This document shows, piece by piece, positions 5,374-9,403 of a stretch of DNA of 64,000 bases (the stretch's first letter is position 1; the number at the start of each line of letters is the position of its first letter). This DNA comes from Acidobacteriota bacterium (GTDB lineage: Bacteria; Acidobacteriota; UBA6911; RPQK01; CBDAPI01). The position numbers were made by a program, and so were the translations under genes. Below the pieces are notes generated by a model, which saw only the letters and a program-made list of their open reading frames with translations, made no database searches and had not been told where the DNA came from. The stretch is from positions 86,224-150,223 of the forward strand of contig CBDBHK010000020.1 of the NCBI GenBank assembly GCA_965205615.1, in the 5' to 3' direction.

Positions 5374-7311
5374 CTAGCCAGTAGCCGGTCGCTCGTTCGG
5401 TTTGACCGGAGGCCGAACAGCTTGTTCCTTCTCCTTGACTTCTTCCGGATCCGAGTCGCGGGAAGGAGCGGGAAGCTGGACCTCTTCTTCATCCTGGCGA
5501 AGCGGCTCGCCCTTGATGACCGCCTTGATCTCCTTGGAATCAAGCGTCTCGTACTCCAGCAAAGCCTCGGCCAGTCGAACCAGAGCCTCGCGGTGTCCTT
5601 TCAGGATTTCCCTGCTTTTCTGGTCGCTTATCGAGACGATACTCCTGACCTCATCGTCGATCTTGACGGCGGTCTTCTCACTGTAGTCCTTATGGCGAGA
5701 GATCTCGCGACCCAGAAAGATCTGCTCCTCGTTTTTTCCGAAGGTCAGGGGACCAAGATCGCTCATTCCCCATTCGCAAACCATCTTGCGGGCAAGGTCG
5801 GTGGTACGTTCCATGTCATTGGAAGCGCCCGTCGTCGTGTTTCCAAGGAAGATCTCCTCGGCAGCCCGCCCCGCCAGGAGGATCGTGATGGCGGCGAGCA
5901 TGTACTCCTTCGTAGAGTTATACGTGTCTTCCTCGGGTAGCTGCATGGTGACGCCGAGAGCTCTACCCCGCGGAATAATCGTTACCTTGTGAAGTGGATC
6001 AGCGTCGGGGAGAAAGTAAGCCACCAGGGCATGGCCGGCCTCGTGATAGGCCGTATTCCGCTTTTCCTGCTCGTTCATCACCATGGATCGCCGCTCTTTC
6101 CCCATGAGCACCTTATCCCTGGCCTCTTCAAAGTCGTCCATGGTGACGGCGCTGCGATCGAAGCGAGCTGCATTCAGTGCCGCCTCGTTCACGAGGTTGG
6201 CCAGCTGGGCACCGGAAAACCCGGGCGTGCCACGTGCCAGGACCGAAATATTTACATCATCGGCCAGCGGAATGCGGCGTGTGTGAATCTTCAGTATTCC
6301 CTCCCTACCCTTAATATCCGGTAAAGAGACAACGACTTCTCGATCGAAGCGACCCGGCCTCAGGAGTGCCGGATCCAGGACATCCGGGCGGTTGGTCGCT
6401 GCAATGAGGATGACTCCCTCGTTGGACTCGAACCCGTCCATCTCGACCAGCAACTGATTCAGTGTCTGCTCGCGCTCGTCATGTCCACCGCCAAGACCGG
6501 CCCCGCGGTGTCGTCCGACTGCATCGATCTCGTCAATAAAGACGATGCAGGGTGCATTCTTTTTTCCCTGCTCAAAGAGGTCGCGAACCCGGCTGGCTCC
6601 GACTCCCACGAACATTTCTACGAAGTCAGCTCCACTGATCGTGAAAAACGGAACATTGGCTTCCCCTGAGATCGCCCGCGCCAGAAGCGTCTTCCCCGTA
6701 CCCGGGGGACCCATCAAAAGCACACCCTTGGGAATTCGCCCACCCAGCTTCTGGAACTTCTAGGGCTCCCGCAGGAATTCGACGATCTCTTGAAGCTCTT
6801 CCTTCGCTTCCTCAATTCCTGCAACGTCCTCGAATGTGACCTTCTTCTGCTGATTGGTCGAGAGCTTGGCGCGGCTCTTTCCGAAGAAGAGAGCCTGGTT
6901 CCCACCCGCCTGCATCCGCCGCATGATGAAGATCCAGAAACCGATGAAGAGGAGGATCGGAAGACCCGAACTCAACAGAACATAGAACCAGTTATTCTGC
7001 TCATCATTCTGGATTTCAACGGTCACACTGTTGTCGCTCAAATGAGTAGCGATGGTTTCCATTCCGTCCTTGGGAATGATCGCCTTGAACTCCCGAGCCG
7101 TATCCGAGCCGTCGGGAACGTATTTCCCGGTCACCTGGCCCGACTGCGTAATCCTCACCTCCTTGATCCGACCCTTGTCCATCAGCCCGATGAAGTCGGT
7201 GTAGCTCTGTTCGTCGGGGCTCCCATTTTGAACGGAATCGAGAAAGTTCCAGAGAAGGATCACCGCCATGAAGACGGCAACCATCAGAAAGATGTTCTTG
7301 GCGGTACTCAC
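5374..7311 (-). pseudogene. ftsH: ftsH (ATP-dependent zinc metalloprotease) interrupted by an in-frame TAG at 6760..6762 and separated from its ribosome-binding site by an IS insertion
   Basis: ORF 6760..7311 is the FtsH N-terminal transmembrane/periplasmic part, ending ..EIVEFLREP. ORF 5374..6723 continues in the same frame with [24 protein letters not shown], the AAA and HEAGH protease domains. The E. coli alignment REPSRFQKLGG places the TAG at a sense-codon position. The gene itself terminates with TAG. Confidence 0.8.
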
Positions 7312-7315
7312 TTAG

Positions 7316-9053
7316 CCCGCATAGATCACCGATAGGACCTCAAAAGGCCGCCCTGTTTGGTATAAAGCGTTTTGAATGAACGTTTTCACACGCCAAACGG
7401 AGGCGGTCCTTATGAGAACAGAGTGTAAACAAGCCAGGTTCGAATTTCACGGACTATTTCAACGCAAAGTGAAGGCGCGGTTCGACGGCGGGAAGATCAC
7501 CTCCGATGCAGGGGTGCTGCTGTTGCGAGAGGTCGAGAGGGGGACGGGTCTGATCGCCGGACTGGCTGAGTGTTTCAGGGATCACCGGGATCCGCGGTTG
7601 ATCGAACACACGGTCGAGGAGTTGTTGGGGCAGCGCATCTACGGACTCTGTCTGGGGTACGAGGATCTGAACGATCATGATCAGTTGCGCACCGATCCGA
7701 TGCTGGCGGTGGCGGTGAATAAGGCCGATCCGTTGGGGGAGAGGCGGCGGCAGGCCTCAGATCGGGGGAAGGCGCTGGCGGGCAGGTGTACGCTGAACCG
7801 GTTGGAGTTGACCGGCGCCGAGGTCGATGAGCAGGAGCGGTACAAGAAGATCGCGATGGACCCGGACCGGATCGACGGCTGGATGGTGGATGCCTTCGTG
7901 GAGTCCCACGAATCGGCGCCCGAGGAGATGGTGCTGGATCTGGATGCGACCGACGACCCGATCCATGGCCAGCAGGAAGGCCGGTTCTTTCACGGTTACT
8001 ACCGCCACTACTGTTATCTCCCGCTGTACATCTTCTCGGGGGAGCATCTGCTGTGCGCCCGGTTGCGGTGTTCCAATATCGATGGGGCCGCGGGATCGGT
8101 GGAGGAACTGGAACGGATCGTCGGCCGGATTCGGCAGAGCTGGCCGGAGGTCTCGATCGTCATCCGGGCCGACTCGGGCTTTTGCCGGGATGACTTGCTC
8201 CGCTGGTGTGAAGACCATCACGTGGATTACGTGATGGGGTTGGCCAACAATGATCGGCTCAAGTCAGAGAGAGCCGAAGCGATGACTCAGGCCGAAGCCG
8301 AGTTCAACGCCACCGGGCGACCGGCGCGGGTGTTCAAGGATTTCCGCTACCGGACTCGCCACAGTTGGACCTCGGAGCGACGCGTCGTCGGCAAGGCCGA
8401 GTTCCTGGACAAAGGCGCCAATCCCCGATTCGTCGTCACCTCCCTGTCGCCGGAACGCCTGGGGGCCCGCGCGCTCTACGAAGACTTCTACTGTGCGCGG
8501 GGCGACATGGAGAACCGCATAAAAGAACAGCAGTTGGGTCTGTTCGCCGACCGGACCAGCGCGGCAACGATGCGCGCCAATCAACTCCGGCTGTATCTGT
8601 CCTCCGCCGCCTACATGCTCATGCACGCCTTGCGTCGTCTCGGACTGAAGCAGACCCCCCTGGCTCGCGCTCAGTGTCAGACGATTCGCTTGAAGCTCCT
8701 CAAGATCGGCGCCCAAGTCCGCCTCACGGTCCGCCACGTCTGGATCTCCATGTCGGAAGCCTATCCCTACAGCGAGGTCTTCGCTGCCGTCGTTCGAAAC
8801 CTCCAGGCCATTCCTCTGCGCTGCTGAGGTCTGTCCCGATCAAACGCCCCCAAAAACGAAATCGTTCCATCGCTCAGGCCGAGCTCTGCCTGAATACATT
8901 CCGTCACGCTCTTCCGAACCCGAAAAACGCTCCATTCACGACCCTCCACACCACCGCATCACTCGACCTGGACCGGATCGATAGCGAAACTCTCAGAAAA
9001 CCGTTCCGGCCTGCCAAAATCACCTTCATTTCCAAATCGGTGATCTATGCGGG
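7316..9053 (+). mobile_element. IS1380-like insertion sequence, copy 1 (1738 bp), with 4-bp TTAG target duplications
   Basis: Terminal inverted repeats CCCGCATAGATCACCGAT at 7316 and its complement ending at 9053. TTAG lies at 7312..7315 and 9054..9057. It contains a single DDE transposase gene. Confidence 0.8.
7376..8827 (+). CDS. DDE transposase (IS1380/IS4-like family)
   Basis: 483 aa. It is nearly identical to the reverse-strand ORF 50476..51849. The family call rests on the fold FHGYYRHYCYLPLYIF..SIVIRADSGF and a ~1.7-kb IS with CC-initiated inverted repeats. Confidence 0.8.
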   Translation: MNVFTRQTEAVLMRTECKQARFEFHGLFQRKVKARFDGGKITSDAGVLLLREVERGTGLIAGLAECFRDHRDPRLIEHTVEELLGQRIYGLCLGYEDLNDHDQLRTDPMLAVAVNKADPLGERRRQASDRGKALAGRCTLNRLELTGAEVDEQERYKKIAMDPDRIDGWMVDAFVESHESAPEEMVLDLDATDDPIHGQQEGRFFHGYYRHYCYLPLYIFSGEHLLCARLRCSNIDGAAGSVEELERIVGRIRQSWPEVSIVIRADSGFCRDDLLRWCEDHHVDYVMGLANNDRLKSERAEAMTQAEAEFNATGRPARVFKDFRYRTRHSWTSERRVVGKAEFLDKGANPRFVVTSLSPERLGARALYEDFYCARGDMENRIKEQQLGLFADRTSAATMRANQLRLYLSSAAYMLMHALRRLGLKQTPLARAQCQTIRLKLLKIGAQVRLTVRHVWISMSEAYPYSEVFAAVVRNLQAIPLRC

Positions 9054-9403
9054 TTAGGCCTCCCAGCGGAGCGCACGCCAACATCTTCAGTATCGTTCGA
9101 AACGAGAACTGCTGCTATGGTCGTGGAACCAGCCATCTACTTAACTATTACAGTATTTTACTGTTATCGAGCACATCGGCCACACTCAGGCGCGCGTCTT
9201 ACCGAATTGGCTTCTCTCCACATCTTTGAACCAGCCCCAGACCTTGCAGTCACGGGCACAGCGTGGCGCCCAGGCCGCCTTCTCTTACCAAGAGGGATAG
9301 GGGGGGGCTAAGCCAGGGGACGCGTTGAAGGGAACAAGCTGCGTTTTTGGTGCCCGTATACGGATGAGGAAAAAGAGATGAGGAGATGAGCTGCACAGAA
9401 GAA

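Follow-up and report, generated by a model that had tools for sequence, protein, structure and literature searches.

An insertion sequence upstream of the start codon and a nonsense codon in a probably redundant ftsH paralog of a soil Acidobacteriota bacterium

Introduction

How can a bacterium tolerate what looks like a lethal double knockout of ftsH, a gene with an essential function? This question is raised by a 64,000-nt stretch of DNA from a soil Acidobacteriota bacterium (contig CBDBHK010000020.1, in the following called the window), in which an insertion sequence (IS) lies directly upstream of an ftsH gene that is also interrupted by an in-frame TAG. The gene, located at 5374..7311, is an extra, non-canonical ftsH and is named ftsH-B here. 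Two disabling lesions of the kind that mark a pseudogene are present in this copy: the IS separates the Shine-Dalgarno sequence (SD) from the start codon, and codon 184 is a nonsense codon. A first-pass annotation of the window had proposed that the disrupted copy is probably a pseudogene, and the loss of the SD, the nonsense codon and lesions that differ from strain to strain speak for this proposal. According to the explanation that we favor and regard as very probable, ftsH-B is a redundant paralog, probably acquired by horizontal transfer, that is undergoing pseudogenization, and the housekeeping ftsH is located elsewhere in the genome.

Results

Insertion of an IS1380-family element between the Shine-Dalgarno sequence and the start codon

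Direct reading of the minus strand yields a frame of 645 codons for ftsH-B, which begins with GTG (7311..7309), ends with TAG (5376..5374) and is free of frameshifts. The IS, 1,738 bp in length, is located between this GTG and the sequence GGGAGG. It is bounded by perfect terminal inverted repeats of 18 bp (CCCGCATAGATCACCGAT; 7316..7333 and 9036..9053) and by a 4-bp target duplication, which reads TTAG on the plus strand and CTAA on the strand of ftsH-B. The end of the IS has a second exact match within the window, with 0 expected by chance. The transposase is encoded by a single DDE open reading frame (ORF) and passes the IS1380 family model; elements of this family, as known from ISfinder, measure about 1.6-2 kb and have terminal inverted repeats and a short target duplication. 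Extent and target duplication of the element had been described correctly before, but not its orientation: it had been placed on the ftsH strand, whereas the transposase ORF is encoded on the plus strand and is divergent from ftsH-B. The end of the IS that faces ftsH-B is the transposase 5' end.

Removal of the IS together with one copy of the duplication reconstructs the empty site GGGAGG-CCTAA-GTG. This sequence aligns column for column with GGGAGGCCTGGGTG, GGGAGGCGTGAGTG, GGGGAGGTCTGAGTG and AGGAGGCCGGATTG in four IS-free ftsH loci, and this comparison upholds the earlier suggestion that the element inserted into the 5-nt spacer between SD and start codon. The position given for the SD (9063..9068) had to be corrected by 4 nt (Table 1). 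To the reconstructed site we assigned a predicted energy of the duplex with the anti-SD of -10.2 kcal/mol, compared with -6.0 kcal/mol for the sequence now present upstream of the GTG, in which the remaining pairing is mis-spaced; the corresponding values are -10.3 kcal/mol for the canonical ftsH copy described below and -4.3 kcal/mol for the window median, and all of these energies assume a generic 3' tail of the 16S rRNA. With this generic anti-SD no SD supplied by the IS was found within range of the GTG, and a scan restricted to the E. coli consensus revealed no sigma-70-like promoter in or around the IS.

A nonsense codon at a conserved glutamine position

The translation of ftsH-B contains the transmembrane segments IFLMVAVFMAVILLWNF and WFYVLLSSGLPILLFIGFWIFIM as well as GPPGTGKT, IVFIDEIDA, the second region of homology (SRH) and HEAGH, and the Pfam domains FtsH_ext, AAA, AAA_lid_3 and Peptidase_M41 are distributed over the two fragments into which the TAG divides the frame. 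Walker A/B, SRH and HEAGH motifs are all intact in codons 185-645. Owing to the TAG at codon 184 (6762..6760), the window does not encode an uninterrupted full-length FtsH. For comparison, near-identical FtsH proteins of full length (P0001-P0004) were found by protein search; they are encoded on four conspecific contigs (L081-L084), which stem from four different samples and show 99.5-99.7% nucleotide identity to the window. One of these proteins, P0001, possesses Gln184 and shows three differences to the window frame (G95S, S142F and Q184*); it scores 874 bits on the FtsH equivalog model TIGR01241, for which the cutoff is 600.

The change at codon 184 is a C-to-T transition from CAG to TAG that is private to the window genome. 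CAG is present at this codon in L081-L084 and in the closest species representative (L001), an IS-free locus with 89% amino-acid identity to the window FtsH. Among the 116 homologs that do not belong to the species, 114 have Gln at this position. These data confirm that the TAG replaces a sense codon and that no frameshift is involved. It had also been assumed that TAG is a genuine stop in this organism, in line with its use as terminator in 14 of the 28 called genes of the conspecific loci and in 11 of the 35 long ORFs of the window. Neither a suppressor tRNA nor a tRNA-CUA is present in the window, and no other gene with an internal in-frame TAG was seen there. A same-frame pair of ORFs split by TAG (18361..20115 and 20116..21483) was considered as a second amber case and rejected, as it consists of unrelated genes (DUF885 and TctC-TctB).

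Age of the two lesions

The same IS was found at the same junction (...TCTATGCGGG-CTAA-GTG) in all four conspecific contigs. As the IS occurs in all five genomes and the TAG only in the window, the insertion is old and shared by the species and the TAG is private. This distribution indicates that the insertion preceded the TAG and that the two lesions are of different age. On the far side of the IS, L082-L084 contain CTAG followed by a truncated trypsin-like gene instead of the ftsH leader, and the native leader of ftsH-B is lost altogether in these three contigs. The combination of CTAG on the far side with CTAA on the ftsH side represents a footprint of IS-IS recombination.

In L081 a further IS (L081:6558-8001, equivalent to window ~9307..9311) with a 450-aa DUF772/DDE_Tnp_1 transposase is located about 250 nt upstream of the SD of ftsH-B. 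This element is absent from the window, so IS activity is ongoing within the species.

Strain-specific decay of ftsH-B and an invariant canonical copy

The exchanges G95S, S142F and Q184* are found in the window only, P221S in L081 and T547I in L082, while the independent assemblies L083 and L084 share Q612* and a 1-nt insertion. Altogether, the polymorphisms of ftsH-B in the five genomes comprise four missense, two nonsense, one frameshift and three synonymous changes. Three of the four missense changes (at S142, P221 and T547) hit residues that are invariant in the 116 homologs outside the species; invariant sites make up only 38% of FtsH, and the missense changes therefore strike such sites about as unselected mutations would. 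About 12 kb of flanking coding sequence contained neither nonsense nor frameshift changes in the same alignments.

A search with tblastn detected no second ftsH within the window. In the conspecific samples, however, a canonical ftsH (P0121) was found in four of four cases. The protein belongs to another FtsH cluster, and the longest contig of this cluster equals that of P0001 in length (3,011,197 bp). P0121 is located at 20-38 kb of the contig ERZ25069191:ctg586776_35x_l in the context carD-tilS-ftsH-(folP)-cdaA-ybbR-coaD-mfd, and the same contig of 1,251,661 bp also holds the IS-linked copy (L081) at 504-526 kb, about 485 kb away from the canonical copy (L087). In the three other samples the two copies lie on separate contigs. 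ftsH-B itself lies outside the conserved tilS-ftsH-folP context. Among the four samples the gene for P0121 shows 0 differences over 1,938 nt, compared with seven differences in ftsH-B of the same samples (one-sided p=0.008), which indicates that ftsH-B is under relaxed selection relative to the canonical copy. The expectation that a second ftsH should exist is thus correct for the species, with both copies on one contig; for the genome of the window, which presumably carries the canonical ftsH as well, it is drawn from the relatives. Downstream of the canonical ftsH no folP (Pterin_bind) was called in L087:9938-10919, where the three other samples contain a 261-aa folP; a frameshift or an assembly problem is possible.

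Origin of ftsH-B

Between ftsH-B and the canonical copy of its own species the identity is only 79% at the nucleotide level and 89% at the amino-acid level. The synonymous divergence (dS) of ftsH-B amounts to 1.93 against the canonical copy of its own genome, to 0.37 against a non-canonical copy of another species (L086) and to 0.51 against the canonical copy of that species (L085), and a value of 1.47 separates the canonical copies of the two species. From these distances ftsH-B is probably a xenolog gained from a related Acidobacteriota lineage, where we infer the direction of transfer. The ratio of nonsynonymous to synonymous divergence (dN/dS) ranges from 0.03 to 0.14 over all of these comparisons, and purifying selection has therefore acted on ftsH-B during most of its past.

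When the sequence reconstructed without the IS is compared with other ftsH loci, homology begins about 106 nt upstream of the start codon and stops at the stop codon; only in the comparison with L086 does it extend 126 nt further. Leader, gene and tail form a cassette of ~2.2 kb that is found in different contexts in two species. The leader of about 105 nt is conserved between canonical and extra copies of several species (window 9058..9160 on the minus strand, L086:5894-6003, L085:5902-6003, L001:5346-5451 and L087:7894-8003). It contains an invariant CUCC four nt upstream of the SD GGAG, with which it could form a predicted SD-sequestering hairpin; this hairpin is invariant and shows no covariation, and the leader has no Rfam match.

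A second ftsH is not limited to this species. A related chromosome of 5.43 Mb also contains one canonical and one non-canonical copy, and several extra copies of relatives look impaired at the sequence level: the AGH of the HEAGH zinc site is absent from P0006 in a related genome, P0034 and P0035 end at 554 aa, and P0012 (L086) contains Leu in place of Pro in the ATNRPD motif. The longest contigs of P0034 and of the full-length P0129 are equal in length, so the two are probably encoded on the same contig.

Table 1. Position and strand of the features of the ftsH-B locus and of a further copy of the insertion sequence in the window.
Feature	Position	Strand	Basis
tRNA-Thr(CGU), directly downstream of the cassette	5000..5076	-	tRNA annotation
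3' tail of 126 nt, found otherwise only at L086, the non-canonical ftsH copy of another species; 3' limit of the cassette	5248..5373	-	blastn
ftsH-B codons 185-645 and terminal TAG: AAA+ ATPase, AAA lid, M41 protease	5374..6759	-	Pfam AAA 2.5e-46, Peptidase_M41 8.6e-72
TAG, codon 184	6760..6762	-	sequence; CAG in L081-L084 and L001
ftsH-B codons 1-183, beginning with GTG; two transmembrane segments and periplasmic FtsH_ext	6763..7311	-	translation; Pfam FtsH_ext E=1.5e-8
Target-site duplication, copy adjoining the ftsH-B start	7312..7315	.	sequence
IS1380-family insertion sequence, 1,738 bp	7316..9053	+	inverted repeats; identical junction in 4 conspecific contigs
Transposase ORF, 483 aa, directed away from ftsH-B	7376..8827	+	Pfam PF13701 DDE_Tnp_1_4 E=4e-156; NCBIfam NF033539, 383.8 bits, cutoff 180
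Target-site duplication, second copy (TTAG/CTAA)	9054..9057	.	sequence
Conserved ftsH leader of ~103 nt, homologous to the canonical tilS-ftsH intergenic region; 5' limit of the cassette	9058..9160	-	blastn boundaries, alignment
Shine-Dalgarno sequence GGGAGG cut off from ftsH-B; distance to the GTG now 1,747 nt (5 nt before the insertion)	9059..9064	-	sequence, alignment
Further copy of this IS, split by another, different element of the IS1380 family (about 48889..50527)	48525..51908	-	sequence matches, family models

Further features of the window

A 51-nt direct repeat with 94% identity is present at 5068..5118 and 14127..14177. It consists of the first 9 nt of the tRNA-Thr(CGU) and 42 nt upstream of this tRNA, and the two copies bracket a segment of ~9 kb with ftsH-B, the IS, a methyltransferase, rpoD and a short-chain dehydrogenase. 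The repeat pair may have been left behind by an insertion or duplication at the promoter of the tRNA; an integrase was not seen.

The element that interrupts the second copy of the IS encodes a 443-aa transposase (48983..50314) and shows an apparent TCAA duplication. In the outer copy the transposase-proximal terminus is diverged, and the flanks TTAG and CTAG do not match. At 38867..38970, next to a 693-aa ORF (36800..38881), lies a sequence of 104 nt that shows 85% complementarity to the inner element's end (50425..50528). It is probably a solo IS end or a relic.

The alpha-2-macroglobulin gene at 23929..29930 (minus strand) is divided into two ORFs with a frame offset of 1, located at 27120..29930 (MG2/MG3) and at 23929..27159 (bait region, A2M, TED and MG10). 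The junction coincides with a CCCC run near 27123..27126, and the split is either a frameshift pseudogene or a homopolymer error of the assembly.

Discussion

The comparison of the five genomes suggests the following course of events. The ~2.2-kb ftsH-B cassette would have been transferred horizontally from a related lineage of the Acidobacteriota and have come to lie next to the tRNA-Thr gene. In an ancestor of the sampled strains the IS1380-family element then would have inserted at CTAA between SD and GTG, whereby the SD and the leader, together with any promoter in the leader, were shifted 1.7 kb away and the divergent end of the IS was placed in front of the start codon. Translation of ftsH-B was most likely abolished or strongly reduced by this event. 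The housekeeping ftsH in the tilS-ftsH-folP-cdaA context presumably supplies the essential function, so that the silenced copy could drift and accumulate lineage-specific lesions, and IS-IS recombination would have stripped the native leader in three genomes. The insertion leaves the ORF untouched, and the evidence for the death of the gene is therefore provided by the later mutations in different strains; because independent disabling mutations ensued, we infer that the IS silenced ftsH-B.

Some observations weigh against the decay of a redundant gene. An intact ORF of 645 codons is kept in two to four conspecific genomes (P0001, P0002, P0003), so some function is possible. The presence of the canonical ftsH in the exact genome of the window is deduced from relatives of the identity given above. 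The ratio of nonsynonymous to synonymous changes is 6:3 in ftsH-B and 11:12 in the flanking genes, which is no significant difference (Fisher p=0.44). A dN/dS contrast between ftsH-B and its neighbors, considered as proof of relaxed selection, was dropped since it is not significant at this shallow divergence. What speaks for relaxed selection are the disabling mutations, the exchanges of invariant residues and the difference from the canonical copy. Finally, the TAG is a one-base difference private to the window assembly, and the splitting of the alpha-2-macroglobulin gene at a CCCC run, possibly a homopolymer indel error, could point to an imperfect consensus. If the TAG at 6760..6762 were such a consensus or base-calling error, the IS would be real and the ORF intact as in the relatives. 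The window-private differences in the downstream flanking genes fit this assumption, as they are mostly nonsynonymous (5:1) and include several T-to-G or A-to-C transversions. In the upstream block, however, most of the positions at which the window and L081 differ are synonymous or intergenic (three nonsynonymous, five synonymous) and the called genes are all full length, which speaks against a noisy consensus. The C-to-T transition at codon 184 also resembles most of the other changes in ftsH-B across the strains, the gene contains two more window-private missense changes, one of them at an invariant residue, and an independent CAG-to-TAG change at codon 612 was found in two separately assembled samples and is hence real. 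We consider an erroneous TAG unlikely.

The intact ORF in L081, L082 and the contigs of P0001, in spite of the IS common to all, could also mean that ftsH-B is still functional, by read-through or an IS promoter and SD-less translation from the GTG, and that the TAG arose only very recently in a single strain and does not mark the last stage of a long-dead gene. Activation of neighboring genes is known for elements of the IS1380 family such as ISEcp1. The end that faces ftsH-B is nevertheless not the one from which outward promoters of the ISEcp1 type fire; the scan with the E. coli consensus gave no promoter-like match, and an SD within range of the GTG is lacking. Two independent nonsense changes, one frameshift and missense changes at three invariant residues in five near-identical genomes, with the canonical copy unchanged, make continued function improbable. 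An intact ORF behind the IS in most strains would be explained if ftsH-B were a small, self-contained ~2.2-kb cassette that spreads horizontally among Acidobacteriota into differing contexts, and if the IS were more than damage and kept an extra, dosage-sensitive protease switched off. Such a state would be tolerated or selected, and precise excision might reverse it, but we regard this idea as quite improbable. That ftsH-B is the sole ftsH of an organism that lives without FtsH, or in which a suppressor relieves the need for it, would agree with the absence of a second ftsH from the 64 kb of the window; given that the conspecifics carry an invariant canonical ftsH, in one case on the same contig, and that ftsH-B lies outside the tilS-ftsH-folP context, it is very unlikely. 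Decoding of the TAG as Gln or pyrrolysine, or its efficient suppression, would allow production of full-length FtsH. Recoding of TAG to Gln occurs in some phages and bacteria, and the ancestral codon 184 is indeed CAG. But TAG terminates about a third to half of the genes, including ftsH-B itself, the window contains no suppressor tRNA, none of its other genes has a domain interrupted by an in-frame TAG, and the conspecifics have CAG; a change of the genetic code or suppression of TAG was rejected on these grounds, and we see hardly any chance for it. Decay of a redundant paralog thus remains the favored explanation. No new mechanism is required, and the locus is most likely a case of ordinary gene decay.

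The locus resembles ordinary pseudogenization by IS elements in that a DDE element with inverted repeats and a 4-bp duplication parts a gene from its expression signals and point mutations follow, in that IS-IS recombination reshapes the flank, and in that several IS copies, one of them nested, occur within 64 kb. It differs from it in the insertion exactly into the 5-nt spacer between SD and start codon, with the ORF left untouched. With the gene activation by ISEcp1 it shares an element of the same family directly upstream of a gene start. The genes driven by ISEcp1, however, are located downstream of the 3' end of its transposase and keep their ribosome-binding site. ftsH-B, in contrast, is faced by the transposase 5' end and has been deprived of its SD, and the promoter scan revealed no promoter-like site directed outward. 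Two ftsH genes are also present in Pseudomonas aeruginosa clone C, where the xenolog FtsH2 is encoded on the island PACGI-1 beside the core ftsH1 (PMC6629908, PMC10850787). As is probably the case for the pair described here, the core copy has the main function, and the extra copy was horizontally acquired and is not to be taken for a replacement. PaFtsH2 is intact and expressed, adds to fitness, and came from a distantly related donor on a large stress-tolerance island (PMC6629908, PMC10850787). In contrast, ftsH-B probably stems from a close relative (about 89% amino-acid identity), its ~2.2-kb cassette shows no obvious island machinery, and the gene is in the process of being lost.

The locus is an illustrative and cautionary case, in which the seemingly lethal double knockout of an essential gene very probably reflects decay of a redundant and probably horizontally acquired paralog. 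A few near-identical metagenome-assembled genomes are enough to read that the IS came first and that point mutations followed later and independently. For annotation this means that the gene should be recorded as a pseudogene of an accessory ftsH copy and not of the housekeeping gene. At the level of the clade, members of these Acidobacteriota appear to carry, and to damage, a second ftsH repeatedly.

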